Assembly: GCA_934278925.1 (NCBI GenBank)
Contig: CAKQWJ010000005.1
Span: 19,615 to 83,614 of the forward strand
Length of the DNA: 64,000 nucleotides
Direction: 5' to 3'
DNA from: an uncultured Clostridia bacterium
GTDB taxonomy: Bacteria > Bacillota > Clostridia > Peptostreptococcales > Anaerovoracaceae
This document shows, in pieces, positions 2,601 through 56,763 of this stretch. Position numbers and translations under genes: made by a program. Position 1 is the first letter of the stretch, and each line of letters opens with the position of its first letter. A model generated the notes under the pieces. The model was not told the DNA's origin. It saw only the letters and a program-made list of their open reading frames with translations, and searched no databases.

Positions 2601-3173
2601 CTATTCCTCCAACTGCTTCTGCATCGTCCGGTGGCTCTCGATGGTCAGCAGCTTCTCTTTAATGTCCAACCCGCCGTTATACCCCGTCAGCCGGCCCCGG
2701 GATCCGATGACTCGGTGGCAGGGGATCACCAGCGGCAGCCGATTGTGGTTCGCCGCGATGCCCACCGCCCGCCAGGCTTTGGGGCTGCCGGCGGCTTCAG
2801 CGATTTCCCGGTAGGTGCGGGTTTCGCCGTAGGGGATGTCCAGCATGGCACACCACACTTCTTCCTGGAAGCGGGTTCCTTCCATGCGAATGGGAAAGGT
2901 GAATTCCTCCCTCTCTTCTTCCAAATATTCCTGAATCTGCCGGCAGGCCTTCTTCAGGACGGGGGCGACTTCGGCGCGATTCAGGTTGTTCCGAGTGTAG
3001 GCCGGGCCTTCGCCGGCGGGGAGACCGCCTCCCTCGAAGCAGACAGAGGGGAAGGGGTCTTGGAGGAAAGCAATTTCCCGAATCTCCTTTTGGTTCCCTT
3101 TGATCTTCAGTTTTCCGATGATTCCCGTATCATAGATGATGGTTTCCATCCGCCCTTCCCGGTTTTCCTGCAT
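2601..3173 (-). CDS. ogt: Methylated-DNA--protein-cysteine methyltransferase (O6-alkylguanine-DNA alkyltransferase)
   Basis: The C-terminal half carries the PCHRV active-site motif (…NRLPLVIPCHRVIGSRGRLTGYNGG…). Start chosen at ATG 3173 (MQENREGRMETIIYD…), preceded by AAAGGAGG. The longer track ORF (to 3392) has no RBS. Confidence 0.85.
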   Translation of the reverse strand: MQENREGRMETIIYDTGIIGKLKIKGNQKEIREIAFLQDPFPSVCFEGGGLPAGEGPAYTRNNLNRAEVAPVLKKACRQIQEYLEEEREEFTFPIRMEGTRFQEEVWCAMLDIPYGETRTYREIAEAAGSPKAWRAVGIAANHNRLPLVIPCHRVIGSRGRLTGYNGGLDIKEKLLTIESHRTMQKQLEE

Positions 3174-3310
3174 TTCGACCTCCTTTATCATTCCATTTGT
3201 TGGAGCCATTGTATCACAAGAATTGCGCCGGTAAAGGGTCTCTGGACAAAAAGGACTTTTCCCCCGGGAAAAAGTACGAAAACGCCCGAAACGTAAACTT
3301 CCGAATATAA

Positions 3311-3350
3311 AAAAACCGGTCAATGCATTTGCATTGACCGGTTTTTCTCC
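3311..3350. terminator. Bidirectional terminator hairpin (aaaaaaccggtcaatgcatttgcattgaccggttttt)
   Basis: A 10-bp perfect stem is flanked by an A-run and a T-run. It lies immediately 3' of the minus-strand tRNA. Confidence 0.7.
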
Positions 3351-3353
3351 TCT

Positions 3354-3428
3354 TGGAGCTGCTGGCGAGAATCGAACTCGCAACCCCTTCATTACGAGTG
3401 AAGTGCTCTACCATTGAGCCACAGCAGC
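3354..3428 (-). tRNA. tRNA-Thr (anticodon CGT), CCA encoded
   Basis: Minus-strand sequence GCTGCTGTGGCTCAATGGTAGAGCACTTCACTCGTAATGAAGGGGTTGCGAGTTCGATTCTCGCCAGCAGCTCCA folds as a cloverleaf with a 7-bp acceptor stem, D-arm, anticodon stem CTTCA/TGAAG with loop CTCGTAA (anticodon CGT), a GTTCGATTC T-arm, and an encoded CCA. Confidence 0.85.
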
Positions 3429-4609: not shown

Positions 4610-4689
4610 ATTCTGTCCTCCACTTACAACTATTCAGGTTAACACGTCTTAATTGGAGTATATCAGAGCCGCCGCCCGCCCGCAAGGGC

Positions 4690-5445
4690 CGGCGCCAACA
4701 TGGGCGGCGGGGCGGCGCCAACATGGGCGGCAGGCAGGCGGGATTCGGGGCGCCCTGTTGGCGTGGCCAGGCGGTGGGATAAGGTTTTGTCGGGAGGGCG
4801 GCGCCAACATGGGCGGCCGCCGGGCAAGATTCGGGGCGCCCTGTTGGCGTGGCCAGGCGGTGGGATAAGGTTTTGCCGGGAGGGCGGCGCCAACATGGGC
4901 GGCAGGCTCGCGGGATTTCAGGTGCCCTGTTGGCGTGGCCAGGCGGTGGGATAAGGTTTTGCCGGCGGGCCGGCGCCAACATGGACGGCCGCCAGGCGGA
5001 ATTCGGGGCGACCTGTTGGCGTGGCCAGGCGGTAGGATATGGCTTTGACGGGAAGGAGGCGCCAACATGGGCGGACGGCAGGCGGGATTTCAGGCGACCT
5101 GTTGGCGTGGCCAGGCGGTGGGATAAGGTTTTGCCGGCGGGCCGGCGCCAACATGGACGGCCGCCAGGCGGTCTTCAGGCCGACCTGTTGGCGTGGCCAG
5201 GCGGTAGGATAAGGTTTTGCCGGGAGGGAGACGCCAACATGGACGGCCGGCAGGCAAGATTCGGGGCGACCTGTTGGCGTGGCCAGGCGGTGGGATAAGG
5301 CTTTGCCGGCGGGCCGGCGCCAACAGGCCAGCAGGCAGGATTCGGGGCGACCTGTTGGCGTGGCCAGGCGGTGGGATAAGGTTTTGCCGGCGGGGCGGCG
5401 CCAACATGGGCGGCCGGCAGGCGGAATTCGGGGCGGCCGCCGTCC
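4690..5445. repeat. Tandem array of ~8.5 copies of an 85-87 bp hairpin-forming unit (consensus ggcgccaacatgggcgg…gattcggggcgccctgttggcgtggccaggcggtgggataaggttttgccgg…)
   Basis: 'ggcgccaaca' recurs at 4799, 4886, 4972, 5058, 5144, 5230, 5317 and 5397, with two partial copies at 4691 and 4714. Each unit contains the inverted repeat cgccaaca/tgttggcg around a ~30-nt GC-rich loop. The array fills the 1-kb gap between two minus-strand genes. The many overlapping ORFs in the track here are artefacts of the repeat. Confidence 0.9.
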
Positions 5446-5647
5446 ATACAATAGAACAGGCTTGCAGAAGGAACTCGTTCCTCCTGCAAGCCTACATCTC
5501 TAGTCTTTCTAGTCTATTCTTTCCCTTTTTTACAAAACGTTGCCCGGCATATTTCGCGAGACCATAGAAAAAGCGTTCCCTCTTCGCTCTGCCGGTCGCC
5601 TACGGTCTCGTTGTTCGTATTTTTTTACAGAGCGTTCTTTTACAAAA

Positions 5648-6997
5648 TTACACGGTGCATCTTACGATGTACAGCCCATCCTGATAGGTGTCCACGTAAA
5701 TGTATCCGCGGTCGTCCACCAGAACGTCTTCGGCGATGCCGATGTGCGGTCCCGGGAACAGCGTGCCGTCCTCGATGTCGAACCAGGTGCCTTCCGGATC
5801 CGGCGGCATGAAGTAAGCGATTTCCTTCGGAACGAACGGATCCGATACGTCGTAGACGCGGAGGCCCGCCTGGAAGTGGCAGTTGTAGACTCTGTCGTCT
5901 CTCTGCTCCAAGCAATCCTGCGGTGCGGCATCGTACATGTTGTGCGGGCCGAATACCACGCGCTGGCCGTCGATGATGTTGAAGTTCTCGCCGTGGCACT
6001 TTTTGTATTCTTCCGGAACTTCCGGATACGGGAATACGGAAATCAGGGACGGGTTCTCCTTGTCGTCGGTCTCGATCATTCCAATCATGTTCATCGGCTG
6101 GCTGGTGATTTTGTGGAACATGCCATCCTCACGGTTCGGATCGAAGTACCAAGGACGCTCACCCTCGGTGGTTACGATGGCGAACGGTCTGTCGCCCAAA
6201 GGCATTGCGGTGTGCACCGCTGCGCCGGACTGGCCGTTGGAGAACGGCGGGTTCAGCGGAACGTTGCCCAGCAGTCTCGGACGGGTTTTGTCCTTCACGT
6301 CGATCATGCAGAATCCCACGTTCGGGAACGCCGCATAGACGATGTCGTTTCTCTCGGTGATGGCGTGGCCGTTCGGCAGCTTCATGAACGGCTCGGTTCC
6401 GAATTCCGGAATGTCCGACGCCTTCTTGTTGCCCAGATACTGGCCGTCTGCCCACCAGCTGCCCACCTCAACCGGATGAGTCGGATCCTCCAGGTCGATG
6501 ATGCGCAGAATGTATCCCATATAATTTCTTTTACTGCCCATGATGTACGCATATCTTCCGCCATCATAGTAGCTCCGGTGCACGCCCGGACCGTCCTCAC
6601 ATTCGAACTGGCCCAGGAACTTCGGATTCCATGGATCCTCCGCGATGTCGTAGATCTTGAAACCGCCCCAGAACGGCTGCTCGTGAGTTCCGTGGAGTAC
6701 CCGCAGGGTTCCGCCGTAGCAAGCGATCAGCTTTCCGCCGGCCACCTGAATCTTCGCCAGGGACTGACCGTCATGGATCTCGCTGACCCAGTCGCCCTCA
6801 ACCCACTTGGACACCGGATTCTTCGGATCCGTCACTTCAATAATATTAAAACCATTATCCCGGAAGCACGCCGAATAGATAAAATATCTTCCATCTTCCG
6901 TGCGATGCATCCCCATCTGGAACCCCGGCTTCTTGTTCAGATCGTTGTAGCCGACAAATTCCATGTTCTTCAGCAGCATTTCGGTTCTTCTGCTCAT
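5648..6997 (-). CDS. LVIVD-repeat beta-propeller protein (function unknown)
   Basis: Recurrent hydrophobic-x-(I/V)-x-D-(V/L)-x-D-P-x-x-P motifs (FKIYDIAEDPWNP, LRIIDLEDPTHPVEV, CMIDVKDKTRP, LRVYDVSDPFVP). Start at ATG 6997 (MSRRTEMLL…) with RBS AAGGAGG; the track's upstream extension lacks an RBS. Confidence 0.55.
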   Translation of the reverse strand: MSRRTEMLLKNMEFVGYNDLNKKPGFQMGMHRTEDGRYFIYSACFRDNGFNIIEVTDPKNPVSKWVEGDWVSEIHDGQSLAKIQVAGGKLIACYGGTLRVLHGTHEQPFWGGFKIYDIAEDPWNPKFLGQFECEDGPGVHRSYYDGGRYAYIMGSKRNYMGYILRIIDLEDPTHPVEVGSWWADGQYLGNKKASDIPEFGTEPFMKLPNGHAITERNDIVYAAFPNVGFCMIDVKDKTRPRLLGNVPLNPPFSNGQSGAAVHTAMPLGDRPFAIVTTEGERPWYFDPNREDGMFHKITSQPMNMIGMIETDDKENPSLISVFPYPEVPEEYKKCHGENFNIIDGQRVVFGPHNMYDAAPQDCLEQRDDRVYNCHFQAGLRVYDVSDPFVPKEIAYFMPPDPEGTWFDIEDGTLFPGPHIGIAEDVLVDDRGYIYVDTYQDGLYIVRCTV

Positions 6998-7040
6998 GAA
7001 TTTCCTCCTTATGATTGTTTTTTCTCCAATCCCTTCCACT

Positions 7041-7083: not shown

Positions 7084-7219
7084 GTTCAATTGGAAATGCG
7101 ATTTTTGAGGGGGACGTTATGCAAAAAAAGCATTACCTCCCGTCAGACACGTCCGACTCCCCCGCAAGATTCGGTTTGGCGCAGTTCCTCGGTGTCGTCC
7201 GCTGCCTCCGGCAATGCGA

Positions 7220-8881: not shown

Positions 8882-9204
8882 CTGTGTACCTTTTCTAATT
8901 TATCTTTGCTGCTATGCGCTTGCCTTTCGGCTTTTCCGTCACTTATTTTCCGGATGCCGATTGCTCTCTGCCGGCCGAACCCGTCTTTCCGGAGTTGTTG
9001 TTCATCTTTTTGTTGACGCTGCAGCAGCTCATGGGCCGATCTCCGAATTCCTTGGAATTGGACTCCCCCAGTCGCTCAAGGTACTCATTCCATGATTTTT
9101 TAAGCTTTGCAAATAATTTCAACGTTAATCTCCTCCCCTACTTTAACAATTTATTGTACCACTTTGAACACAAATTAATTGATATAAATGTGAAAATTAA
9201 AATT

Positions 9205-9415
9205 GCCGCCGGCCGGGCCGCCTTCTTCCTTTTTTCAGGCCCGCGGTTCGCGCTCGAAAACCGAATTCATTGGCTTTGCGGGCAGGCGAGCGCGAACTTT
9301 GCCGCCGGCCGGGCCGCTTTCTTCCTTCTTTCAGGCCCGCGGTTCGCGCTCGAAAACCGAATTCATTGGCTTTGCGGGCAGGCGGGCGCGAACCGGGCCG
9401 CCGGCCGGGCCGGGC
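9205..9415. repeat. Tandem direct repeat, ~2.2 copies of a 95-96 bp unit (gccgccggccgggccgcyttcttcc…ggcccgcggttcgcgctcgaaaaccgaattcattggctttgcgggcaggcgrgcgcgaac)
   Basis: Copies start at 9205, 9301 and 9396 (partial). Each unit contains the perfect 11-bp inverted repeat gttcgcgctcg/cgagcgcgaac around a ~31-nt loop that includes 'ggctttgcggg', the same motif seen in the other two arrays. Confidence 0.85.
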
Positions 9416-9426
9416 ACAAATAAGAA

Positions 9427-9454
9427 GGGAGCTTGCGCCCGGCGCAAGCTCCCC
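9427..9454. terminator. GC-rich hairpin (gggagcttgcgcccggcgcaagctcccc) 3' of proC; weak terminator candidate
   Basis: A 12-bp stem sits ~35 bp downstream of the proC stop on the minus strand. The trailing U-tract is poor (cttcttatttg). Confidence 0.35.
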
Positions 9455-9488: not shown

Positions 9489-10280
9489 TTACATGCTTCT
9501 GGATTTCCGGGTGGCGGCGGACACGCACTTGATGGTCGCCGCACGGAAGCCGTTATCTTCCAGTACTTCACATCCTTCAATTGTGGTTCCGGCCGGGGAA
9601 GTCACCATGTCCTTCAGCTGACCCGGGTGCATGCCGGTATCCTTCAGGAGTTTCGCGGATCCCAGCACCGTCTGAATTGCCAGCTCGTAAGCCACATCAC
9701 GGGTCAAACCTTCTTTTACGCCGCCATCGGCCAGTGCCTCCACGAACATTGCCACGTATGCCGGGCCGCCGCCGGAAAGACCGCAGGCCGCATCCAGGTC
9801 GTAGGTTTTGACCCAGGTAATGGTGCCGATGGACTCGAAGAGCTTCGTGGCAAAATCCCGCTCCGCCTCCGTCAGATCGTTTTCCTTGCTGCAGGCGAAC
9901 GCCCCTTCAAAAACAAGCGCCGGGGTATTCGGAAGCAGCCGCAGAATGCGGAATTCTTTTACCGTGCAAGCATCCCGAAGACGCTCTACGGACACCCCCG
10001 GAAGGATGGACAGCATTGCCTTGCCCTGCAGCCCCTTTCCGGTCTGTGCCATGGCATCCGGCATCTGCTGTGGTTTTACCGCCAGAAGGGTCACGTCCGT
10101 GTTTGCGGTGACATCTTCATCGTCCTTCGCCACCGTCAGGCCGAACTCCTCCGCCGCTTTCCGCGCCGACTCCTTGATATCGTAGACCAGCACGTCTTCC
10201 TTTGCCAGAACGCCGCTAGCCACCGCACCTTTCACGATGGCACCGCCCATGTTTCCGAATCCAATTACGCCAAATTTCAT
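9489..10280 (-). CDS. proC: Pyrroline-5-carboxylate reductase
   Basis: MKFGVIGFGNMGGAIVKG… NAD(P)-binding N-terminus and a ProC C-terminal dimerisation domain (…GGGPAYVAMFVEALADGGV…SPAGTTIEG…). Confidence 0.9.
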   Translation of the reverse strand: MKFGVIGFGNMGGAIVKGAVASGVLAKEDVLVYDIKESARKAAEEFGLTVAKDDEDVTANTDVTLLAVKPQQMPDAMAQTGKGLQGKAMLSILPGVSVERLRDACTVKEFRILRLLPNTPALVFEGAFACSKENDLTEAERDFATKLFESIGTITWVKTYDLDAACGLSGGGPAYVAMFVEALADGGVKEGLTRDVAYELAIQTVLGSAKLLKDTGMHPGQLKDMVTSPAGTTIEGCEVLEDNGFRAATIKCVSAATRKSRSM

Positions 10281-10313: not shown

Positions 10314-11000
10314 TTAGAACCGTTCTCCCTCAAATTCCAAAATCCGATCGTATTCCGCCTGACCGAAGAGTTTTACGTAATCCTGCACCGCCTTCCGGAT
10401 GATTTCATCGGCACTCTCCGGGAACGCTTTCTGAATTTCATCGGTGATGGTGTAGTAGATGTGCGCCGTGTGGTAGTCGAAATCCCGCATGGCCGAAGTG
10501 CCCAACTCCTGTTTCTTCCGGTTCATTTTCGCCAGGTCTTCCTCCGTCAGCGGCTGCCCCCAGTCGAACTCGCAGCGCTTGCCGCCCCAGCTCATGGTCG
10601 GCACGTTGGGCGTACAGACGAAATCCTCGCAGAATCCCTCGTACACCGCCTTGTCCACGTTCACGCAGTATTCCCGGCCGTACTCCAACAGGCCATACTT
10701 ATTCCAGGCGTCGCACCACGCGCATTTGCTGATGTAGCTCTTCAGGGTCGGTTCCGTCTCGTCGTATCCGAACTCCATCTGGCCCTCGTAATCCGGCTTC
10801 CACTCGCCGTAGGCCTGATTGGTCCACAGAGCAATCGGGTCCCCGTTGGCTTTCGCCCGAGCCGCCATCCGTGCGCCCCGCTCCCGGCCGTACCGAATCA
10901 TGCCTTTCTGAATGACATCCCGACCTTTCTCACCCTCGGTTTCCACCGTGTATTTGCAAAGTAGCGCGAACACGATTGCTTGATTTTCAATTCTCAGCAT
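10314..11000 (-). CDS. Conserved Cys/Trp-rich hypothetical protein, tentatively L-2-amino-thiazoline-4-carboxylate hydrolase-like family
   Basis: Start at ATG 11000 (MLRIENQAIVFALL…) with RBS AAGGAGG. Contains …CAWCDAWNKYGLLEYGREYC…. The family assignment is from memory of the motif and is not verified. Confidence 0.4.
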   Translation of the reverse strand: MLRIENQAIVFALLCKYTVETEGEKGRDVIQKGMIRYGRERGARMAARAKANGDPIALWTNQAYGEWKPDYEGQMEFGYDETEPTLKSYISKCAWCDAWNKYGLLEYGREYCVNVDKAVYEGFCEDFVCTPNVPTMSWGGKRCEFDWGQPLTEEDLAKMNRKKQELGTSAMRDFDYHTAHIYYTITDEIQKAFPESADEIIRKAVQDYVKLFGQAEYDRILEFEGERF

Positions 11001-11273
11001 TTGCCTACCTCCTTGGTTGCTTATTAGCACTCACTATACGCTTTTCTGTTTTAAAATTCAATATTTTACAGGAATGTTTATCCTATGTACCAAATTATAT
11101 GCTTTTTCGCCCGCTTCCTCAACCGTTAATCCATCGATAAAAAGAATTTCATCTCCCCATTTACGATAGATATAATCAATAGATTTTTTTGAAGATTTAA
11201 TATGAATTTAGCATTTTGAGGAGTATAATATAATAAAAGAAGAAAATGGTGCGAAGAAAACTACTAAAGTACA

Positions 11274-11654
11274 TTGAGTATTCCTTTCGACTTTTATAAC
11301 AAATCTGACACGGATGAAATAAGGCGGTACACGGAGGAAAGATATGGCATTTCAATTGATTACATAAACCTTTTAAATCAGCGATATCTGTATCAACAAT
11401 CAAATGATGCGGGAAAAAGAAAGTGGTTAACGGTGGAAGATGATTGTGTCGTTGATTTCTGCAACAATTTTGAGGGAGAATTATACCGAATATATCAAAA
11501 GGACAACGTCTGTATACTGATGAAAAGGATTGATGAACAACTTCGGGGGTACCATTCTCCTTTGACGAATTCGGTATCTGCAGATGAGAAACATTCATTA
11601 GCAACCTGGCAAGAAGACATTTCAGAATTGATAATTGCAGCGCAGTTGGATTAA
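11274..11654 (+). CDS. Hypothetical protein in an AT-rich islet (TTG start as given by the track; the true start is uncertain)
   Basis: 126-codon ORF in a visibly AT-rich stretch with no recognisable motifs. The coding call rests only on ORF length and codon look. Confidence 0.3.
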   Translation: MSIPFDFYNKSDTDEIRRYTEERYGISIDYINLLNQRYLYQQSNDAGKRKWLTVEDDCVVDFCNNFEGELYRIYQKDNVCILMKRIDEQLRGYHSPLTNSVSADEKHSLATWQEDISELIIAAQLD

Positions 11655-11713
11655 ATCCGGTTCATAATTTCCAGTATAACATTAAAACACTGATCGTAAA
11701 GGAGATGATTATC

Positions 11714-11782
11714 ATGTCAATTTATGGAAAGAGAATGTGCTCTTCACTGACCGGAGATACCCCTGCTGGTGATTTGAATTAA
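11714..11782 (+). CDS. Candidate small peptide (22 aa: MSIYGKRMCSSLTGDTPAGDLN)
   Basis: RBS AAGGAG sits 10 nt upstream of ATG 11714, in an AT-rich intergenic stretch and directly upstream of a second small ORF. Confidence 0.3.
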   Translation: MSIYGKRMCSSLTGDTPAGDLN

Positions 11783-11796
11783 TTGGTGGTATAGCT

Positions 11797-11913
11797 ATGG
11801 ATAGTATTATGAAAGCATTAGAGGCGAGAGGACAAGCGTTAACGCTTCCTCTGATTGCTGCGGGAATCATTTTAGCGGTTGTACTGATTTGGAATTTTCG
11901 TCCGAAAAAGTAG
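11797..11913 (+). CDS. Candidate small hydrophobic peptide (38 aa: MDSIMKALEARGQALTLPLIAAGIILAVVLIWNFRPKK)
   Basis: RBS-like GGTGG sits 7 nt upstream. The peptide has one predicted transmembrane helix and a C-terminal basic tail, the architecture of type I toxins or small membrane regulators. Confidence 0.35.
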   Translation: MDSIMKALEARGQALTLPLIAAGIILAVVLIWNFRPKK

Positions 11914-12031
11914 AATATTAATTAATCAATACTGGAAATATTGAGCTCCAGGGGTGAGGCCATGAAACATTTCGCCCCTGGAAATAAATGTAAAACGGGG
12001 CTTCGAAATATGAAAAGAAAGGAGAATCAAT

Positions 12032-30231: not shown

Positions 30232-30395
30232 ATATTTCCTCCTGTCCCTAATTACAAATATGCCTACGCATCCTTGGATTATACTATATTATTGTGGTGA
30301 ATAAAAGAATTTCAACTATCGGGACTGAGTTTTTGGAAGGTTTTTTCAATAGATGGGGTGGGAAGTATAGATTGGATTGATAGGAATGAATCATT

Positions 30396-31079
30396 TCACG
30401 TTAATCCTATTCGCAAAATGTAGCCAACGCCTCTTTTGGTCAATATTTCAAGGTTAGAATCAATACGATTTAACTTTTTTCTGAGTGCGGAAACGTGAAC
30501 GTCAACGGTGCGATTGGAATTGCAAAATCCATAGGTATCGATCTGTGCATACAAAACTTCTCTGCGAACAACGGCGCCTATGTGCTCTATCAAGTTTTGA
30601 AGAATTACTGCTTCATTTTGGGTAAGCTCAACGGAACCGACTGCCGTTTGCAGCTGATATTTTCTTCTGTTAAATGTCATATTTCCAACAGAAATAACGT
30701 TTCCATTTGGAGCCGCACAAAAACACGCTCCCACAGCTTCCAGCAAATCATTGGGCATAAACGGAATCGTAAGATATTTGACAACATTCATGTTGAGTTG
30801 ATTGCACACATTCACGTCCTCGTTATTTTTCAATATCAAAACTACGCTGCGAAGCATATCAGCATCGCTGATATGCTTCGCAATTTTCAATTTCACATTT
30901 TCCAAACTATCTAAATCACACAAAATCAAATCAATGCCCTTAATCTGCAGCAATCTTATCGCAGATGCAGCATCGCTTGCAACCGTTACTTCATATCCGT
31001 AATTAATAAGAAAACTCTTTATGGCTGTTGCGATGACCGCATCAAATTCAATCAAAAGAACCGAATTGCTTGATTTCAT
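30396..31079 (-). CDS. OmpR/PhoB-family response regulator with an atypical receiver domain (orphan)
   Basis: A winged-helix C-terminus is present (…RTVDVHVSALRKKLNRIDSNLEILTKRGVGYIL). The receiver retains the phospho-acceptor region (IDLILCDLD), but the conserved Lys of the KPF motif is Ile (YLTIPF). No histidine kinase is adjacent, and the gene lies in an AT-rich islet. Confidence 0.6.
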   Translation of the reverse strand: MKSSNSVLLIEFDAVIATAIKSFLINYGYEVTVASDAASAIRLLQIKGIDLILCDLDSLENVKLKIAKHISDADMLRSVVLILKNNEDVNVCNQLNMNVVKYLTIPFMPNDLLEAVGACFCAAPNGNVISVGNMTFNRRKYQLQTAVGSVELTQNEAVILQNLIEHIGAVVRREVLYAQIDTYGFCNSNRTVDVHVSALRKKLNRIDSNLEILTKRGVGYILRIGLT

Positions 31080-31088
31080 ATCTCGAAC

Positions 31089-31466
31089 TTAATTCTCCCT
31101 TTTTCTTGCCATTTGAACAATTGAAAATGCACACGCTGCCACTGCTATTGCGATGACCGCACCACCCCATAGAGTTAATCCGGTTGCGATATCCGTCACC
31201 GAATATGCATTTCCATCAAATTCTTTTCCTTGAGTATACACATATAAGAACACTGCTGGAATGAATAATAAATTCCCAACCAGAAATACCAGTCTGTTTC
31301 GCAATAAAATGCATCCCGCAATTACTACGACCAATGCTAAAAATACAAACGGGTTAAGCAAAAAGTGGGTCCCGCGGATTCCGTCAACCCCGGATTGATT
31401 CGTGTACCACACGAAAGGAGAGAGTACTACTACAAGCAACGGAAACACAAACGTCTTATCTTTCAT
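31089..31466 (-). CDS. Small membrane protein (hypothetical, 125 aa)
   Basis: Four predicted transmembrane helices, inside the AT-rich islet and between the regulator and amidase genes. Confidence 0.45.
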   Translation of the reverse strand: MKDKTFVFPLLVVVLSPFVWYTNQSGVDGIRGTHFLLNPFVFLALVVVIAGCILLRNRLVFLVGNLLFIPAVFLYVYTQGKEFDGNAYSVTDIATGLTLWGGAVIAIAVAACAFSIVQMARKREN

Positions 31467-31475
31467 AGAAACCTC

Positions 31476-32438
31476 CTATTTGATTCTTATGATTCGGAAT
31501 GTATTAGTAGCTGCAATCTTTGATATAGACGCATCCACCGCGCTATTTGATCTAGCAGAATATTTCCAATCACCTTTCTTTCCACCTGTTATTATTATAG
31601 TATGATAGTATGCTATTTTTCCACTAGAATTCTTTTTTGCTAATTGAACAACATCACCTAATTTTGCTTTATCTTGCAATGTTGCCCGGTTTTTGCATGA
31701 TATTATGTTCGCGCCCTTACTCTTCCAGTATGTATAAAAATCACTTACTCTCATAAATGCCGTGCTTTGCTTATAACGATGATACGGGTTTGATGACGTG
31801 TAATGGTAGGAATACCAATATTTTGTAGTCCCATATTTGTCTGGTTTTGTCTTATATGATGGAGCATATGTGAATGATTTCCCTCCAGCCTTAATGCACT
31901 GAGAGACAAAATTAGTGCAGTCTGAGCCATATGCAGGATATGCAGGCGTATTTGGATTACGCGCATGTTTCTTTGCATACGAAATTGCTTTTGAGGACGA
32001 AAAACTCTGGTTTGTTGCAAGAGTATCTGATAGGTTATCTGATTCCGCTTTCTCCCGATCATCAATCAAGGCATATGTCGACCAGATTTCTTTTCCTTCA
32101 ATCTTGTTTCGTGCTTTTTTATTAGCATAAGAATCCGGATTGATTACATATAGTGATGCATACGCCATCATTTCCTGATAATTGTCTTGATTAAATAAGT
32201 CTATATCTTTATCAAAGACCAACTGATCTGATAAGAAATCAATATATTCCTTACTATCGATTTTAATTTCAGGGTAATTGTTCTGAATGTATGAGTTCAA
32301 ACAATTTCTTGCTTCTAAAACACTAGTTTTCTCACCAGAATCATCTTCCGCAAAAACCCCCACTGTTAACATACATAGAGTAACAACTAGTAAACATAGA
32401 ACATTACAAATAGATACTTTTTTAACGGTTGAATTCAT
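31476..32438 (-). CDS. Secreted putative amidase-domain protein (Amidase_6-like: …YGSDCTNFVSQCIKAGG…)
   Basis: Start at ATG 32438 (MNSTVKKVSICNVLCLLVVTLCMLTVGVFA, a signal peptide) with RBS AGAGGAGG. The conserved Cys-containing CTNFVSQC motif is present. The gene is AT-rich. Confidence 0.6.
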   Translation of the reverse strand: MNSTVKKVSICNVLCLLVVTLCMLTVGVFAEDDSGEKTSVLEARNCLNSYIQNNYPEIKIDSKEYIDFLSDQLVFDKDIDLFNQDNYQEMMAYASLYVINPDSYANKKARNKIEGKEIWSTYALIDDREKAESDNLSDTLATNQSFSSSKAISYAKKHARNPNTPAYPAYGSDCTNFVSQCIKAGGKSFTYAPSYKTKPDKYGTTKYWYSYHYTSSNPYHRYKQSTAFMRVSDFYTYWKSKGANIISCKNRATLQDKAKLGDVVQLAKKNSSGKIAYYHTIIITGGKKGDWKYSARSNSAVDASISKIAATNTFRIIRIK

Positions 32439-32667
32439 ACGAACCTCCTCTTTTAACACTGCAAATAACCCCCGTTGTTTTTATTTTAAACAGCTTATGT
32501 TAAATTAGTGTTAAGATGTGTTGAAAATATTTAAACACATCTTAAAATTAGTTTATTAAATTTATACACGTCTGCAATTCCAAGTACATGGGACCGTCCA
32601 TGCATCTGTAGGATCCACAAGAGGAAAACATTTTTCTCAGATTCAGCCAGAGGGAAGGTAATCGTGT

Positions 32668-33100
32668 GGGCGCCTCGGAACGGTAGCTCAAGGCTTTGCC
32701 GGGGGTGAGGCGCCAACTCGGGCGGCCCACCGGCGGGCTCCGAGGCAAAATGTTGGCGCCTCGGGACGGTAGTTCAAGGCTTTGCCGGGGATGAGGCGCC
32801 AACTCGGATGGCCCACCGGCCGACGCCGGGGCGAAAAGTTGGCGCCTCGGAACGGTGGCACAAGGCTTTGCCGGGGATAAGGCGCCAACTCGGACGCCCG
32901 GTCGGCGGGCTCCGGGGCGAAAAGTTGGCGCCTCGGAACGGTGGCTCAAGGCTTTGCCGGGGGTGAGGCGCCAACTCGGGCACCCGGCCGGCGGGCTCCG
33001 GGGCATAATGTTGGCGCCTCGAGACGGTAGCTTAAGGCTTTGCCAGGGGTGAGGCGCCAACTCGGACGCCGGCTACTCGGGCGCCGGCCGGCAGGCGCCT
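32668..33100. repeat. Tandem array of ~5 copies of an 86-87 bp hairpin-forming unit (ggcgcctcggaacggtagctcaaggctttgccgggggtga ggcgccaac tcgggcggcccaccggcgggctccgaggcaaaat gttggcgcc)
   Basis: Units start at 32668, 32755, 32841, 32927 and 33013. A perfect 9-bp inverted repeat ggcgccaac/gttggcgcc encloses a ~34-nt loop. The array shares 'ggcgccaac' and 'aaggctttgccgg' with the 4690-5445 array. Confidence 0.9.
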
Positions 33101-33148
33101 TTTAACGCCAGGAAATGAAAAAAACGGCAGAGCCGGAGGCGCTTCTCG

Positions 33149-33751
33149 TTACGCCTCGTGCTCTGCCGCGATTTCAAGATGTTCTGTGGCCGTGCCGTTT
33201 TGGATGTGGATTTCGTATCCGCAGCCGGGGCTCGGCGTCCAGTCGAAGATGTTTTTCTTCTCGCCGGAGAACAGGATTTCCATGATTGCGGAAATCACCG
33301 CTCCGTGAAGGACCGCAATGACTCGCGGATTGTCCTCTTGTAGAAGGGTTTCCAGGCCCCGGTTGACCCGGCGAAAAAAGCCTTCGTAGGAGTCTCCGCC
33401 CGGAAAATCGAATTCCGGCACCTCCCCCTTAAGCCAGCGGCTTCCCAAAGGAGTGGCCAGCACCTCGTCGAAGGTCTTCATTTCGAAAATTCCGATTTCA
33501 ATCTCTCGAAGGTCCGGAATCCGGCCGTGAGGCCTTTCCCCATAGATGGCCTCAAAGGTCTGCTCCGTGCGGAGCATCCCCGAGGTGTACAGCGCAGCGG
33601 CCTCGCCCTCCGGATACAACCCGCGCTGCCGCTTCGCCTCCACCTCCTGCCGGCCGGATGAGGTAATGGGGAGGTCCGTGCTTCCGTAGAACAGCTTCCG
33701 TTCCGTCCCCTCCGTGTTTCCGTGCCGGATTAGATACAATTTTCTTTCCAT
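33149..33751 (-). CDS. Histidine phosphatase family protein (phosphoglycerate-mutase-like)
   Basis: LYLIRHGNTEG catalytic RHG motif; 200 aa. Confidence 0.85.
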   Translation of the reverse strand: MERKLYLIRHGNTEGTERKLFYGSTDLPITSSGRQEVEAKRQRGLYPEGEAAALYTSGMLRTEQTFEAIYGERPHGRIPDLREIEIGIFEMKTFDEVLATPLGSRWLKGEVPEFDFPGGDSYEGFFRRVNRGLETLLQEDNPRVIAVLHGAVISAIMEILFSGEKKNIFDWTPSPGCGYEIHIQNGTATEHLEIAAEHEA

Positions 33752-38469: not shown

Positions 38470-41400
38470 CTACCGCTTGGTCTTCAGCACCTTTGCCTTG
38501 GACCAAGATGAATAGATTTTATTCCCCTTTACGGTTTTGTACGTCCGAACCCTCACGTAATATTTCTTCTTCGCCTTTTTCACTTTGAAGGTCTTTTTAA
38601 CCGCACTCTTTTTGCCGACTTTCACAATTCTTCCGGACTTGAAATTCTTGCGGACGGAGTACGCAATCTGGTAACCGCTCACTTGATTCTTCTTCGTTTT
38701 CCAACGAACGTAAATCTTCTTGCCCCGCAGCGCTTTTACTTTTGCTACCGATGGGGTTTTCGGAACAATCCGATATGTCACCGTTCTTTTTTCGCTAAAA
38801 TTACCCTTTCCGGTAATCTCAACGGTTCCGGTTCCCACATTCTTTGCGGTTGCTTTCGATACGGTATAATCCGTTCCCGCCTTCAAAGGAATTCCTTTAT
38901 AGGAAAGCTTTAGGGACGGCTTCTGCGCCTTGCCGGAATATACCAAGTGAGAGGATTTCATCTTTACGCTTACGTATTTCATCTTTCTCGGGATAATCCG
39001 GTAGCTGAGTTCCGCTTTTCCGTTAAATCCGGCATCCTCAATTCCGGTCACCGTATAGGTTGCGTATCCAACATTTACGTTATTCTTAAACGTAATGTTG
39101 TAATCTTTTCCGGCCGTCAGGATATTTCCGTTGTACTTTACCGTAATCTTCGGAGCCACCGGAGATCCGGTATAGCGGGTGTTGTAACGAGAGCTCTGCG
39201 CATATTCACAATCCGCAACATCAACATAGGTGTTGTCATCCGCCTTCTTGGCATGGCAACGGCTGCATTCGTACTCATCGCCGACTTTCTTCCAGTCATG
39301 ATATACATCCCCATCGATGCAGCTGCGATATACGGCGCGCAAGGTTGTGTCCGAAGTCACCGTAATCCGGCTTCCCGGCGTAACCATTTCCCCATCGCAA
39401 TCCCAGCCGTCAAAGAGCATATTTTTATCCCCTTCGGTCGGTGCCGGAACGCGAAGCGTTTTGCCGGATGTGATTTTCCGCACGGTGGACTTCCCTCGGT
39501 CAGCCAGTTCCACATTGCAGTACGAAACCTTTCCGTCGGTCAAAGAGAGGGTGCAGTACTGCTGCTCGTTGTACTCATCTTCCGAGTTCTGGAGCCATAC
39601 CGTCACCACATTCTTGTCGCCAACGCTCTCGGTAAAAAGTTCCGAATCCAACAGGACATCAACATTGTTCTTTCCTTCGATGTTCATCCTTCCCACATAG
39701 TGACCGTTCACGTAATAGCTCAAATACTTGTAAGAGCCATTTCCGAGATCCACATTCAGGTGATATTCTCCGGACTTCTTATTTACCGCTTCGTAATTCT
39801 GCGCGCTGAGGTGGGTGACGTCGTCTCCCTCAAACTTGAGGCTGAACTTATCGCTCAGGTTTACATGCATGGATTTCATGGTGGATTCATCCGATGCAAA
39901 CTGATTGTCCATCCAGTTGAACCTCTTATTCAGCCAGCTCTTGAGCGCTTTGTTGTCCTCTTCAAAACCTCTGGAGTAGTGCCAGCGCTGCTGATTTTTA
40001 ATCCCGGATTCCTCGATGTAATCGTGCCACCGATCCAGGGTGCCGTTTTCTTTCACCGCTTCTTTCAGCGTATCCTCTTTGTCCAGATACAGTTCCCGTG
40101 CTTTTATCGCAAAATACGGATCCTTCATGATTTCGGAGAACCACCACCTGCCGTTCGAAGCCCAAGACACTGCTGAAGATGCGCCGAACGGTGCCACCGA
40201 ATCGGAGCCGTAATCAAAATCCCATACCGGACCGAAATGAATCGGCGCGTCGATGTCTTTGTACATGTACGTACTTCCGGAACCAATCTCGTTGCGCATC
40301 ACTTCCGAGGTCAGCCAGAAGCGCGTCAGGCTGTCCACATCACATAAGTCCACATAGGATAACCGCTTTCCGGCAATATCTTTCGTGCATTTATCCGGGC
40401 TGTAAATTGCATCTTCCAAATTCTGTACGTAATTTCGAATTCCGGAAAATGCCCGGTTGCTGCTATTCAGATATTCCGGATTTTTAAACTGAATCGGTAC
40501 ATTTCGGTCCGTCTTGAACTTGGATATTTCATCATAATATCTATCCATTTCCATAAGGTATCCGCCGTTAACCGACTTCGGTTTCTTGTAGTAATCCGTC
40601 GTGGTGTATTCCTTCCCGTTAAATTTAACGGTATCGGAAGTCATCCAATCCAGATCGGATTTCAGCTGATCTTCCAACTTCTCGGCATCTTCATCGGAAA
40701 GACCGTCCTTTGCCGCAATTCCTTCCGCAATGTCGCCGGCAGCGTTTTCCCAATCGAAAGCATTTACCCGATTCTTGTCCAGCTTCACCGTTTCTGTCAG
40801 CTGATAATTTCCCGCATACTTTCCGTTCAGCACCACGTCGACCCAAACCGAATCCATTGCGGTGGTGCCAATCTGCTTTCCGTAATAGGATGCCAGCATA
40901 TTCCGCATGCAGCTTTCATCGATGTAATTAGCGAGCAATGCCCAGTGCTTGTTTTTGCCCATACCAAACAGATTGGTTTTCTTATCCAGCTTTATTTTGT
41001 ACGGTTTCTTTTCGAAACGCTTCCAAGAAGAATTTCCCCGGCCGCGAATCTGGGTTTTTCCATCGTACAGTGTGGTGTTTTCGCTGTTGTACTTATCACA
41101 GCCTTGGATCTTAAAATCTGCGGTGACGTATGTGTCCTTCGATGTAATGTCCGCGCCGTCCTCCGTGTTGATATATACCACCGGCAATTTGCTGCACAGC
41201 AGTATACACTGGGCGACCTTCTTTTGATCCTTCCATGCTTCCACCCGAATCAATTTCTCCAAATCATCGGATGTCACACAATACTTGCTTCCTTTGCAGT
41301 TAATCTGCTTGTCATCCATGTACCACCGGTAACTGATCCCTTCTGCATCCCCATCGTAGGTTACCGTCAGATTCTCTCCCGGTGAAGCATAGGCTTCGTT

Positions 41401-41526
41401 AAAGTGCACACTCCCCGTTTCCTCTGCATACACAGTTCGAGTGCAGAGGATGCCCGCTGCCCAAAGGGCAGCAAGCATCAGTACCAGTACAGGGATCCAT
41501 GTTCTTTTTTTCAAATTACTATACAT
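38470..41526 (-). CDS. Secreted CotH-kinase-family protein with C-terminal Ig/FN3-like repeats (1018 aa)
   Basis: Signal peptide present. CotH-type region: …RGRGNSSWKRFEKKPYKIKLDKKTNLFGMGKNKHWALLANYIDESCMRNMLASYYGKQIG…. The C-terminal repeated beta-sandwich modules end in a Lys-rich tail. Confidence 0.65.
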   Translation of the reverse strand: MYSNLKKRTWIPVLVLMLAALWAAGILCTRTVYAEETGSVHFNEAYASPGENLTVTYDGDAEGISYRWYMDDKQINCKGSKYCVTSDDLEKLIRVEAWKDQKKVAQCILLCSKLPVVYINTEDGADITSKDTYVTADFKIQGCDKYNSENTTLYDGKTQIRGRGNSSWKRFEKKPYKIKLDKKTNLFGMGKNKHWALLANYIDESCMRNMLASYYGKQIGTTAMDSVWVDVVLNGKYAGNYQLTETVKLDKNRVNAFDWENAAGDIAEGIAAKDGLSDEDAEKLEDQLKSDLDWMTSDTVKFNGKEYTTTDYYKKPKSVNGGYLMEMDRYYDEISKFKTDRNVPIQFKNPEYLNSSNRAFSGIRNYVQNLEDAIYSPDKCTKDIAGKRLSYVDLCDVDSLTRFWLTSEVMRNEIGSGSTYMYKDIDAPIHFGPVWDFDYGSDSVAPFGASSAVSWASNGRWWFSEIMKDPYFAIKARELYLDKEDTLKEAVKENGTLDRWHDYIEESGIKNQQRWHYSRGFEEDNKALKSWLNKRFNWMDNQFASDESTMKSMHVNLSDKFSLKFEGDDVTHLSAQNYEAVNKKSGEYHLNVDLGNGSYKYLSYYVNGHYVGRMNIEGKNNVDVLLDSELFTESVGDKNVVTVWLQNSEDEYNEQQYCTLSLTDGKVSYCNVELADRGKSTVRKITSGKTLRVPAPTEGDKNMLFDGWDCDGEMVTPGSRITVTSDTTLRAVYRSCIDGDVYHDWKKVGDEYECSRCHAKKADDNTYVDVADCEYAQSSRYNTRYTGSPVAPKITVKYNGNILTAGKDYNITFKNNVNVGYATYTVTGIEDAGFNGKAELSYRIIPRKMKYVSVKMKSSHLVYSGKAQKPSLKLSYKGIPLKAGTDYTVSKATAKNVGTGTVEITGKGNFSEKRTVTYRIVPKTPSVAKVKALRGKKIYVRWKTKKNQVSGYQIAYSVRKNFKSGRIVKVGKKSAVKKTFKVKKAKKKYYVRVRTYKTVKGNKIYSSWSKAKVLKTKR

Positions 41527-41548
41527 TTTTCACCTATACCTTTACACA

Positions 41549-44500
41549 TTACTTCTTAATCTTAATTTTCTTTACGCTGGAGTAGCTGCCGTAAATCGTC
41601 TTGCCGGAAACCTTTCTGTACGCCCGAACCTTGTAGTAATAGGTCTTGCCCTTTTTCAGCTTCGTATTGGTCCAGCCCCGTGTTTTGGAACCGGCAGTCT
41701 TCATACAGTGATACTTTCCTTTGCTTGAGGTCGCTCTGTATACTTTATATCCGCCGGCATTTGCAGCCTTTTTCCAAGTTATTTTTACCTTACAGCCCTT
41801 CAGATTCTTCACCGAAGCAACTTTTACCTTGGAAGGTTTTGCCACCTTCTTTGCTTCTTTGATCTTGAAGCTTACCTTCACCGTTCCGGTGTATCCACGC
41901 TTGGATATTCCGGTAACCGTTGCCGTCGCAGTACCCAGCTTCACGTTGTTGGAGTAGGTTACCTTGTAATGGACCTTTTCGGTCAATGCCTGATCTCCGT
42001 CTTTTACCACAACCGGCGTCAATGCCTTGCCGGTGTATGTCTGGTCCGGAGCAGATACCGTGCATTTCGAGAGGGACTTCTTCTTCATGTATCCGGTATT
42101 CGGGTCGAAATCGTAACGAACGCCTTCAATCACGGTCGGTTCCGTTACGTAATCATTGCCCCAGTAGTACCGTGTTCCCACAACCTTATTGTTGGAGTCG
42201 GTTTCGTTCTCGAACGCTCCGCGGAGCAGAACGCCGTTGGTGTCGAATTTGAAGTATCTTGAAGTGACCTTCTTGTTGCCCGGTGTGGCAATCTTCGTAT
42301 CCTTTCCATCTTTGCCGACGTACATCTCTCCATCGTCCGGAGATACGGTGTTATTGTATCTTCTCCTGAAGTAGTACATGTTTCCGTCGATTTCTCTCCA
42401 CCGGATGGCATAAGAGCCGCCGCCTTCATAGTATCTCGTAATCGTCTTCTCTGTTCCGTCCTTCAATGTAACGGTTTCCGTTACGAAACTTCCCTTGACG
42501 AACACGCCTTTCTTGTTAAAAGTAAACTTCTTTCCGTCGATGGTAACCGTACCGGTTGATGCGTAGCCATCCTTGTCCATGTAGTACCAATCATCACCGA
42601 TTGATTCCCAATGGTTCTTGACAAATTCTCCATCTTTCAGATAACGAGGAAGACCGGTTTCCTTATCGGTAACCATGCCGGTCTTATCCGAAGGAATTTT
42701 CTTGGAAATCCCGCAGTTCTTGCAGACCAGCCGGTCATTTACGACTACAAACTCGTGCTGATCATTGGCACAGGTTTCCTTTACCTTCTCCTTACTGTAA
42801 CAGTAATCATTCATCTTCGTTCCATCGGCATCGTAGACATCCACAGAGAATTTCGTATCTGTGGCACTCATCTTGAAGTAAACACCGGTGAAATCATCAA
42901 TCGGCTTTACCGCAAAGTTATACTCTTTGGCATTCGATGGTGGATATGCCTTTCCGCCGGTAGTGCCGCATACGTAGTACACAACACCGTTCTTTTTGTC
43001 CGTCTCTCCCTTTGTGGTCGGATGGGTTCGAACCAGGGAATGATCGTGTCCGGAGAACATAAAATCGATTCCGGCCCGTTCGCAAGCATCCGGAATGTAC
43101 TTCGTGAAGGAAGCGCAGTCGTCTGTCGTCGCATTGGTGCCGTATGGCGGCTGATGGGAAACCACAATCTTCCATTTTGCATTGCTCTTCGCTGCGTCCG
43201 AAACCAGCCACTCGGCATCCTCTTTTGCCGCCTGATCCTTGGAATTATATCCAAGAACCGCAACGTATACATTGCCGTAGGTAACCGAGTAGTGCTGCTG
43301 ATTGCTGATATCAAACAGTTTCTTCTGATTGATTCCTTCCGTGTCTCCGTAGAATTCATGGTTGCCGCTTACGTGAATCATATCGGTTCTGTTAAACGGT
43401 GCCGCGCTGAACATATCCAGAATAGCAGTCCATTCGTTATACAGATTGGAAGTCTCCACGAAATCTCCCGTCTGCACGCCGAAGGAATACTTGTCCTTCG
43501 CCAGATCCTTCATAATATCCTGAAGGATGCTCTTATCCTCTACCTGCGTATCGCCCAGTAGGAAGAATTTCGTATCCTCACCGTTATTGTAAGTGCTGAA
43601 TTCTCGTACATCGGACCAGTGTTCTCCGTCACCTACCTTATAAACGTAATCGCTTCCGCTCTTCAGGTCCGTAACGTTCACGGTGTTGATGTAAATCGTC
43701 TTATTGTTCGTCGCAATCGAAGAACCGTCGAAGTTCAATCTTTCGCAGGTTCCTTCCTGCTCCTTAAAGGCCTTCTCCTTATTTTCTTCATAGTCGCTCT
43801 TCAGCGCCACTTTTGCCACGGCCTTCTTTTCCGCATTCACCGGATTGGACATCCACGTAATGCTCTTGGTATTCTCCGAATTCTTCACCGCATTCAGCTG
43901 GATGTAGGCCGGTGTTCCATCTTCATTTGCACCGGAATTAAGAATCTGGGCGGTTTCGATGAACGAAGGTTTTCCCTGAGCATCCTTTGCATAAATCGAG
44001 ATTTTCTGTGCATCCCGGAATCTCGATGTGGTCAGCGTTCCACGGATATCGGTTTCCCCGATTTTCTCGCCGTCCGCCATATAGATGCCGATTCCTTTTA
44101 CCGTCTTACCATTTTTGTCGGTAACGATAATCTTCGTATCCTCTCCGGCAACCGTATTCTCGACACTAATGTTGTATGCCGACTTCACTTCCATGCGCTG
44201 CGTCTTGCGGGTAAAAGAAAGTTCGTGGTTTTCGCCTTGCTCGTCCGTGTACTCAAAATTACCGGCCGTCACTGCATAGGTGAATTTCTTATCCTTCGTC
44301 AAATCGGTTGGCACACCTACCTTGACCGTCGCAAGATTTCCTTCCCCTGAAACATCCGCATCCGCCTTTTTCTTTACAAAAATCTGAACGCTGTTATCGG
44401 TCTTGTTGTACACCGGCGCCTTCGCTTCTTCGAATCCGTCCGCGTATTCCACCGTATAATCCGAGATGCCCTTGCCCAGTTCGATTTCCGTCGATGCGCT

Positions 44501-56657: not shown

Positions 56658-56763
56658 TTTTACATACTTTACTTACTTATATGGTTATTTAGAAAAACGC
56701 GCCTTCTCCGCGGGGGGGAGAAGGCGGCACCGCTCGATGGTATCGAGCAGAGAGAGGGCTTAT

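Follow-up and report, generated by a model that had tools for sequence, protein, structure and literature searches.

A lineage-specific family of hairpin-structured tandem repeats behind gene ends in Mogibacterium kristiansenii and its close relatives

Tandem arrays in the window

The DNA analysed here, a stretch of 64,000 nucleotides (positions 19,615 to 83,614 of the forward strand of contig CAKQWJ010000005.1, assembly GCA_934278925.1; hereafter the window), belongs to an uncultured Clostridia bacterium of the Anaerovoracaceae and carries three intergenic arrays of GC-rich tandem repeats, in which each unit is composed of a hairpin and a linker. In a first-pass annotation, made by a model from the sequence, one of these was recognized as a tandem hairpin-forming array at 4690–5445, and two others, at 9205–9415 and 32668–33100, were considered to be its relatives. 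Both statements hold, as a common motif and covariance-model hits are found in all three.

Array 1 (4690–5445, + strand), delimited by Tandem Repeats Finder (TRF), sequence inspection, covariance-model hits and arm counts, comprises eight complete 86-bp units of the subfamily designated A1, with the stem TGTTGGCG/CGCCAACA; the TRF call covers 4705–5435 (period 86, 8.6 copies, 84 % matches, score 1028). Its hairpin modules were placed by the covariance model on the + strand at 4747–4816, 4833–4902, 4919–4988, 5005–5074, 5091–5160, 5177–5246, 5263–5332 and 5344–5413, and two additional copies of the 3′ arm are present at its left edge (4691–4699 and 4714–4722). Array 2 (9203–9412, + strand), for which TRF, the sequence and covariance-model hits were used, contains two 96-bp units of subfamily B, with the stem GGTTCGCGCTC/GAGCGCGAAC(C/T) and covariance-model hairpin modules on the + strand at 9236–9305 and 9332–9401; TRF reports the same interval, 9203–9412 (period 96, 2.2 copies, 94 % matches). 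Array 3 (32656–33100, + strand), delimited in the same way as array 2, is formed by five 86-bp units of subfamily A3, with the stem (A)GTTGGCGCC/GGCGCCAAC(T) and + strand modules at 32656–32725 (where the 5′ arm is degenerate), 32742–32811, 32828–32897, 32914–32983 and 33000–33069; here the TRF call covers 32665–33070 (period 86, 4.7 copies, 87 % matches).

The loop motif GGYTTTGCSGG occurs 12 times in the window as against 0.26 expected matches, on the + strand only and within the three arrays only, and the arm sequence GGCGCCAAC occurs 19 times as against 0.85 expected, its copies switching between the + and − strands at intervals of 43 bp in array 3. A covariance model built for the hairpin unit recognizes 15 units in the 64 kb (8, 2 and 5 in arrays 1, 2 and 3, respectively), all on the + strand with E values of 2e-16 to 3e-12; solo units were not detected by this model, and all units of the window sit within the three arrays. 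The units of arrays 1 and 3 can be aligned without gaps across all 86 positions; array 2, which has another stem, is less closely related. The GC content of the array units (60–76 %) exceeds that of the genome (~53 %).

All three arrays follow the 3′ end of a minus-strand gene. The gene encoding an LVIVD-repeat protein (5648–7039) and proC (9489–10280), both assigned with Pfam, are followed by intrinsic terminators identified in a terminator scan at 5456–5495 and 9426–9454 (− strand), respectively; array 1 starts a few bases past the T-rich tail of the former, and array 2 directly follows the T-rich tail of the latter. At the end of the histidine-phosphatase gene (33149–33751), sequence inspection and a hairpin-plus-T-run scan revealed a terminator-like hairpin, GGCAGAGC...GCTCTGCC followed by T7 (33118–33167, − strand), which was missed by the consensus terminator tool because of its long loop; array 3 starts ~20 nt past its T-run. 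On their other side, the arrays lie upstream of genes encoding Big_2, CHAP and Amidase_6 proteins. In addition, the 11-mer GCAAGATTCGG, recorded in the first-pass annotation as an isolated copy at 7164–7174 (+ strand), is indeed present there, just downstream of the stop codon of a LysR gene, and is identical to part of the array-1 linker. The covariance model recognizes no unit at this site; as the 11-mer is placed and oriented as arrays usually are, behind the LysR stop, it may be the relic of a lost unit.

The hairpin unit and its subfamilies

Each unit consists of one hairpin and one GC-rich linker, and the unit periods range from 86 to 107 bp across arrays. The 5′ and 3′ arms form a stem of 8–13 bp enclosing a loop of ~28 nt with the core RAC..N10..GGYTTTGCSGG, in which A25, C26, G37, G38, (C/T)39, T40, T41, T42, G43, C44, (C/G)45, G46 and G47 are near-invariant. 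The linker (30–50 nt), which frequently holds a small second hairpin, shows a pairwise identity of 42 % as against 65–68 % in the less variable rest of the unit. When anchored on the motif, 70-nt fragments from all arrays give a near-gapless alignment, and the module that they share is composed of TGTTGGCG, a loop with GGTTTTGCCGG and then CGCCAACA. The order of the arms is thus the reverse of that proposed in the first-pass annotation, in which cgccaaca and tgttggcg were paired across the linker and not around the conserved motif. Since arrays 2 and 3 start with a 5′ arm and finish with a 3′ arm, the complete module corresponds to the hairpin around the conserved motif, and within a tandem array both arm pairings, around the loop and across the linker, can form.

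At least seven stem types, regarded as subfamilies, were found to combine a common loop with differing stems, namely TGTTGGCG/CGCCAACA, GGTTCGCGCTC/GAGCGCGAACC, CTTGGTGCA/TGCACCAAG, CGTGGTGCYTC/GARGCACCACG, TTTGCTCCCC/GGGGAGCAAA, GTTTGCGCCTC/GAGGCGCAAAC and GGTTTGCGTACG/CGTACGCAAACC. The loop core is intact in subfamilies C, D and E and degenerate in subfamily F (AAGGCCTAGCGGGG); these four are unmatched by the search pattern and were found through their adjacency to A or B arrays. Several subfamilies coexist within one genome. As for pairings other than the stem, ACGG co-occurs with GCCGG and ACGA with GCGGG within the loop, and these are Watson–Crick complementary in no register, so that no intra-loop helix is claimed; the pseudoknot-like helix GCCCGGCGGT/GCCGCCGGGC of subfamily A1 is not kept in other subfamilies.

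Comparison of the unit sequences indicates that the stems are kept by compensation and that the loop core is conserved. In 66 units representing seven stem types, a helix of 13 pairs is 85 % paired, as against 33–43 % when the partner column is slid by 1–3 positions, and changes on both sides were observed in 11 of the 13 pairs. The covariation score of these units, 0.427, compares with 0.170 in shuffles and is reached in none of 500. The same 9-bp stem was independently recovered by RNAalifold, with seven of nine pairs compensated (in column 14/60, for instance, GC is found 36 times, CG 21 times and UA 8 times). As the 66 units had been chosen for having a stem, the test was repeated, in a fixed register, on units picked by a hidden Markov model of the loop only; among 172 distinct loop-selected units, core positions 11–17 are Watson–Crick paired in 96–99 %. 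Compensatory changes across copies, proposed in the first-pass annotation as a check of the stem, are therefore borne out by the covariation score, by RNAalifold and by the loop-selected units. Both strands of the units fold.

Distribution, copy number and mosaic arrays

An exact-pattern scan of one genome per species (185,579 species) returned 13 loci, including five in M. kristiansenii WCA-MUC-591-APC-4B, six in a Clostridia metagenome-assembled genome (MAG), one in Mogibacterium sp. 18NH and one alphaproteobacterial match (L006), which is a chance hit and is not recognized by the later covariance model (R1). A pattern hit at a viral locus (L014) is likewise unrecognized by this model. The matched Mogibacterium and Clostridia loci, which include orthologues of all three window arrays, are 92–96 % identical to the window outside the arrays, so the window derives from a close relative of M. 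kristiansenii. Further arrays, of 10, 9 and 6.5 units (L004, L009 and L012, respectively), are present elsewhere in those genomes. A looser two-motif pattern was run on metagenomes; the metagenome loci are those among the matches listed, so that counts from them are lower bounds, and many of them are mutually orthologous, so that counts over loci are not independent. TRF detected many more arrays in them, with periods of 86, 87, 96 and 107 bp at no fewer than 25 loci. Model R1 recognized, besides the 15 units of the window, at least 255 and 48 units (303 together) in the related genome and metagenome loci, giving at least 318 units in ~1 Mb of related loci. No similar DNA was found in plasmid and phage collections. 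The family is lineage-specific, belonging to M. kristiansenii and close relatives, and its host range appears narrow. The suggestion of a dispersed structured family of the REP/BIME/BOX kind, made in the first-pass annotation from three loci, thus extends to M. kristiansenii, related MAGs and many metagenome loci.

The comparison of copy number between strains, also proposed there, showed that orthologous loci differ in short-read assemblies. The array-1 locus holds a single hairpin in M. kristiansenii (L011), 8 in the window, ~11 in a MAG (L010) and 12.6 in a further orthologue (L023), and the array-2 and array-3 loci hold 2.2, 3.1, 5.1 or 7.1 and 2.4 to 5.0 copies, respectively. The mean identity of units is 86 % within an array and 52–72 % between arrays, and this greater likeness within arrays points to local amplification. 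On the other hand, the same subfamily is found at many unrelated loci (more than 10 for subfamily B), so the units must also have dispersed. Mosaics, in which arrays of differing subfamilies are joined end to end and at times in opposite orientation, as in BIME or NIME, were observed at L068 (1371–2439), L060 (11077–11792), L028 (6300–6833), L122 (9883–10162), L081 (9224–9460) and L026 (4398–4989). In M. kristiansenii, an 86-bp array is abutted by a 40-bp repeat (CTCTTCCCCCGAAGGGCCCCTCTTCCCGGCGGGCCTGCAC, 2.5 copies; L009, 1525–1625). MAG contigs were observed to break at arrays.

Position relative to genes, terminators and promoters

The genes around ~60 arrays were called with a self-trained heuristic codon model. 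In 41 of 45 arrays, the gene adjacent on the motif-3′ side is on the opposite strand and has its 3′ end turned towards the array (binomial p ~1e-8); counted by distinct gene families, this applies to 21 of 25 (p ~1e-3); the motif-5′ side is mixed, with 28 genes on the opposite strand and 13 on the same strand. A hairpin followed by a T-run separates the stop codon of the motif-3′ gene from the array in 27 of 32 evaluable cases and at all three window arrays, and the terminator usually ends 25–60 nt ahead of the first model hit. Seven arrays sit between convergent genes, where there is no downstream gene and the array is flanked by two terminators. Within the window, three of ~25 terminator-containing gaps carry an array. 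What the arrays have in common is that they lie behind the 3′ end and the intrinsic terminator of a gene, to which they are usually antisense.

The genes flanking the ~60 arrays belong to 43 unrelated families, mostly housekeeping, and include proC and those encoding a histidine phosphatase, CobW, a MATE pump, pyruvate kinase, RadA, three aminoacyl-tRNA synthetases and aminopeptidase P. No particular class of downstream genes is associated with the arrays. The link with exported cell-wall proteins noted in the first-pass annotation is accurate for the window, where the arrays lie upstream of the Big_2, CHAP and Amidase_6 genes, and does not extend to the wider set; it is a coincidence of three loci.

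A consensus scan at the three window arrays found no sigma-70-like promoter sites within units, and arrays in convergent settings lie between terminators, which makes independent transcription units unlikely. Reading of the sequence suggests a Big_2 promoter at 4657–4685 (− strand; TTGCGG, a 17-nt spacer and the extended −10 element TGATATACT), which was not in the consensus scan and which would place array 1 upstream of the −35 element and outside the 5′ untranslated region (UTR). A promoter-like site, TTGAAA-16-TAAAAT (32521–32548, + strand, 10 of 12 matches), aims into array 3 from ~115 nt upstream; such matches are frequent in AT-rich DNA like that around it. The DNA on this side of array 3 forms an AT-rich island (30300–32650, GC 0.39–0.40 as against ~0.55 around it) that carries a response-regulator gene (30396–31079, − strand) and the Amidase_6 gene (31476–32459, − strand). 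Similarity between the window and the Clostridia MAG ends at 30389, and array 3 is found in the latter ~550 bp further, so the island represents an insertion or deletion between close genomes that is bounded on one side by array 3.

Possible origin and function of the arrays

The arrays are regarded, with moderate confidence, as a lineage-specific, interspersed and hairpin-structured minisatellite family, in which the hairpin module is spread by a trans-acting factor and the arrays are resized by slippage. According to this model, the hairpin would be the functional module and would fold as a single strand, most plausibly in DNA exposed during replication or in a cruciform, RNA being less likely. 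A trans-acting factor might recognize the hairpin through its loop and spread units to new terminator-proximal sites, by analogy with the single-strand enzymes of the REP–RAYT system, and the bias in orientation would be in keeping with activity on one of the replication strands. For REP, it is established that a dedicated enzyme recognizes the single strand, and this mechanism is carried over to the present family by inference. Once seeded, an array could grow or shrink by replication slippage or by unequal recombination between units, which the complementary arms of adjacent units would aid.

Several observations weigh against this model. The Pfam scan, which covered 30 of the 38 window genes, showed neither a transposase nor an HUH gene, and no trans-acting factor was identified; a target-site duplication or a fixed insertion junction was not demonstrated either. 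Approximately 10 of 59 arrays are sense-oriented relative to neighbouring genes, and GC skew follows the gene strand, so that the orientation bias is inseparable from replication direction. The copy numbers come from short-read assemblies, which are prone to repeat collapse, and both collection scans demanded the loop motif, so that loop conservation partly reflects the selection of units. The folding energies of single units are modestly better than those of shuffles (z −1.0 to −3.4), and the case for structure therefore rests on covariation rather than on thermodynamics. Pairs of the G.T type outnumber those of the A.C type on the motif strand by 148 to 83, and inside the core stem by 7 to 5; as the G.T excess arises at the stem edges, these counts favour neither strand as the functional one, and hence neither RNA nor DNA.

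More speculatively, the hairpin with its conserved 28-nt loop may be the recognition module of a trans-acting system in Anaerovoracaceae, representing either a non-autonomous mobile element whose single-strand-specific enzyme targets DNA behind intrinsic terminators or a tandem structured RNA that titrates a protein. This more specific proposal is held to be no better than a minority possibility; either option would explain why loop and stem are kept across at least seven subfamilies as the linkers drift.

Among the alternatives, a role in the read-through RNA of the preceding gene appears rather unlikely. The arrays could serve there as backup terminators, insulators or barriers to 3′-to-5′ exonucleases, as proposed for REP in 3′ UTRs, which would agree with their constant placement behind a gene 3′ end, with their orientation bias to that gene, with the folding of both strands and with the TTTT(T) that follows the hairpin on the gene-sense strand in subfamilies A3 and E. 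However, most transcripts should stop before they reach the array, which is preceded by a canonical terminator in 27 of 32 cases; subfamilies A1, A′, C and D have no T-run and that of subfamily B is on the opposite strand, a 28-nt loop is ill-suited to intrinsic termination, and the conservation of the loop sequence would be left unexplained. The position of arrays after the terminator likewise disfavours the mRNA stabilization considered in the first-pass annotation. Action as DNA-level host sites for gyrase, a nucleoid protein or a cruciform-binding protein, with a role in supercoil buffering or chromosome organization as proposed for BIME-2, is judged unlikely. Double-stranded recognition needs no base-pair covariation, and no binding protein was identified; moreover, an array is present in only three of the ~25 terminator-containing gaps of the window, and the single unit of M. 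kristiansenii at the array-1 locus implies that a large array is dispensable there. Consistent with it are the alternation of complementary arms every ~43 bp (approximately four helical turns), the location at gene 3′ ends, where positive supercoils accumulate, and the high GC content of arrays in a ~53 % GC genome. That the arrays are tandem genes for structured non-coding RNA on the motif strand, acting as a sponge for an RNA-binding protein or yielding unit-length small RNAs, seems quite improbable, even though functional RNAs are classically marked by a conserved loop with a covarying stem. On the motif strand G.T pairs outnumber A.C pairs overall, which would suit an RNA, but this excess disappears within the core stem; the promoter-like site that aims into array 3 has no counterpart within units, and in convergent settings another gene's terminator lies 5′ of the array, leaving no dedicated promoter. 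The linkers of subfamily B hold a small GC hairpin and then a T-rich tract on the motif strand, but the T-tract strand differs among subfamilies, and no Rfam match was found even at E values up to 5.

Regulation in cis of downstream genes for exported cell-wall enzymes, with phase variation through copy number, was a candidate role named in the first-pass annotation and is now considered very improbable. It drew on the genes downstream of the three window arrays and is compatible with the copy-number differences between genomes, but the neighbours are from 43 mostly housekeeping families and seven arrays lie between convergent genes. Arrays are situated either there, between convergent terminators, or upstream of the promoter region, so that the addition of 86-bp units leaves the −35/−10 spacing and the reading frame unaltered. 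Lastly, an assembly artefact or a degenerate or false CRISPR array can be practically dismissed. With a repeat of ~54 nt and a spacer of ~32 nt the arrays look CRISPR-like, and MAG contigs do break at them, but the same arrays, with unit-specific point variants, recur across dozens of metagenome assemblies made independently, in two MAGs and in the genome of an isolate. The linkers are ~75 % alike, being variants of one sequence and not unique spacers, the whole unit repeats, and no cas genes or domains are present among the 30 of 38 window genes scanned, in agreement with the first-pass annotation, in which a CRISPR array had been rejected.

The large conserved loop, the compensatory stems and the coexistence of subfamilies point to a specific partner molecule, and the strict position behind terminators, together with the orientation bias, allows one to ask whether the repeats are targeted to such sites or survive there. 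From a practical point of view, short-read assemblies of Mogibacterium-like gut bacteria are interrupted at the arrays, which could be mistaken for CRISPRs and which offer variable-number tandem repeat (VNTR) markers for strain tracking.

Other features of the window and of the metagenome loci

A second AT-rich patch (GC 0.36, with surroundings of 50–58 % GC) is found at 11000–12000 of the window. A tRNA-Thr(CGT) gene (3354–3428, − strand) lies between the Big_2 gene and the gene encoding O6-methylguanine methyltransferase, and a long open reading frame (ORF; 2601–3392) overlaps it, so the true start of that gene is probably further downstream. Three very large ORFs of 1018, 1889 and 1662 aa lie within 38470–47218 (− strand) and 56578–61566 (+ strand). 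Other metagenome contigs, also retrieved by the pattern scan, carry tandem repeats of 83–102 bp (GCCCCCACG...CCCCCCGAGGGGG...GGCCCGGCAAAGCCGG) that model R1 does not detect (L017, L041, L044, L067, L069, L093, L105, L110, L112, L128 and L133); these look like a separate hairpin-repeat family of other bacteria.

Comparison with known repeat families

Strain typing makes wide use of repeats of the REP, BOX, STAR and MIRU type, which in some cases also influence gene expression; to our knowledge, neither the function nor the mode of spread is understood for most such interspersed repeats. Literature searches on Mogibacterium repeats yielded nothing relevant, and no earlier description of the present family was found in the literature library searched. 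In a search of the window against Rfam 15, the tRNA-Thr alone passed the gathering threshold, and the arrays gave chance microRNA-like hits with a best E value of 0.2. The integron attC consensus (R″(RYYYAAC)...R′(GTTRRRY)) is fitted in part by GTTGGCG/CGCCAAC and not by GTTCGCG, CTTGGTG, CGTGGTG or TTTGCTC, and no gene cassettes lie between arm sites. A coding repeat was rejected, as neither 86 nor 107 bp is divisible by three, the period differs between subfamilies and the codon model calls no coding over the arrays; by-eye comparison with parS, cre, CodY-box, Rex-box, dif and anti-Shine–Dalgarno sequences gave no fit.

Among interspersed repeats, the NIME of Neisseria consist of RS units flanked by dRS3, a fixed 20-bp sequence that serves as a phage integration target. 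Like the window family, they are mosaic intergenic arrays that join unit types bounded by short inverted repeats, but the inverted arms of the window family vary by subfamily and enclose a conserved loop, unlike the fixed dRS3. The MIRU-VNTR loci of Mycobacterium tuberculosis are tandem arrays of 40–100-bp units at dozens of intergenic loci, orientation-biased and polymorphic in copy number; they lie inside operons, have small ORFs that overlap the flanking genes and are not defined by a covarying hairpin. The window family shares with MIRU-type VNTRs its tandem units (periods of 86, 87, 96 and 107 bp), many intergenic loci and copy-number differences between strains, and departs from them in that its arrays follow intrinsic terminators and that two of its periods, 86 and 107 bp, are not divisible by three. 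BOX of Streptococcus pneumoniae is a modular intergenic repeat present at many loci, in which tandem boxB modules of variable copy number are predicted to form stable stem-loops. In contrast to the window family, it has the terminal modules boxA and boxC, and there is no sequence similarity between the two; we know of no rule that places BOX behind terminators.

The STAR repeats of Staphylococcus aureus are, like the window family, GC-rich interspersed direct repeats in intergenic regions of a Firmicute, with tandem units of ~50 nt or more that expand and contract locally, locus-specific sequences, diverse flanking genes and no assigned function or dispersal mechanism (PMC3532100). They can be mis-called as CRISPRs (PMC5294841). 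In the cited papers STAR is defined by a 14-bp signature, T[GAT]TGTTG[GT]GGCCC[CA], whose copies are spaced by 40 bp or more (PMC3532100), whereas the window family is defined by a large-loop hairpin with covariation. No match to the signature was found in the arrays even with two mismatches, and the window has a single hit, at 57920, which is fewer than chance would give. The arm TGTTGGCGTGGCCC of subfamily A1 is loosely STAR-like, the stems of other subfamilies being unrelated; together with the bases that follow it (TGTTGGCGTGGCC(C/A), 4757–4775 and equivalents), this arm resembles STAR TGTTG(G/T)GGCCC with a 3-nt insert, which may be a coincidence.

A parallel in organization exists with REP and BIME, which are also high-copy, GC-rich extragenic hairpins, typically at gene 3′ ends, with several classes per genome and variable cluster size, and which form regularly spaced composite clusters with alternating complementary arms (PMC2817692, PMC3733652). 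The window family, with at least 318 units, likewise forms extragenic, high-copy and regularly spaced clusters with alternating arms. However, REP is a palindrome of 20–40 bp with a small loop, whereas the hairpin of the window family measures ~54 nt, with a stem of 8–13 bp and a loop of ~28 nt. One end of the REP palindrome is marked by a conserved tetranucleotide, GTAG or CGTC (PMC3733652). The window family has no such tag: its stem flanks are variable, and among 172 units 9 contain GTAG and 11 contain CGTC, at no fixed position. A RAYT (Y1/HUH transposase) was not found among the 30 of 38 window genes scanned. BIME alternates whole palindromes, whereas the window family repeats one hairpin and its linker head to tail, and REP and BIME are proteobacterial, whereas the host of the window family is a Firmicute. 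The best reading of these comparisons is that the family is an undescribed one that belongs, with REP/BIME, STAR, BOX, MIRU and NIME, to a known kind of bacterial interspersed intergenic repeats.

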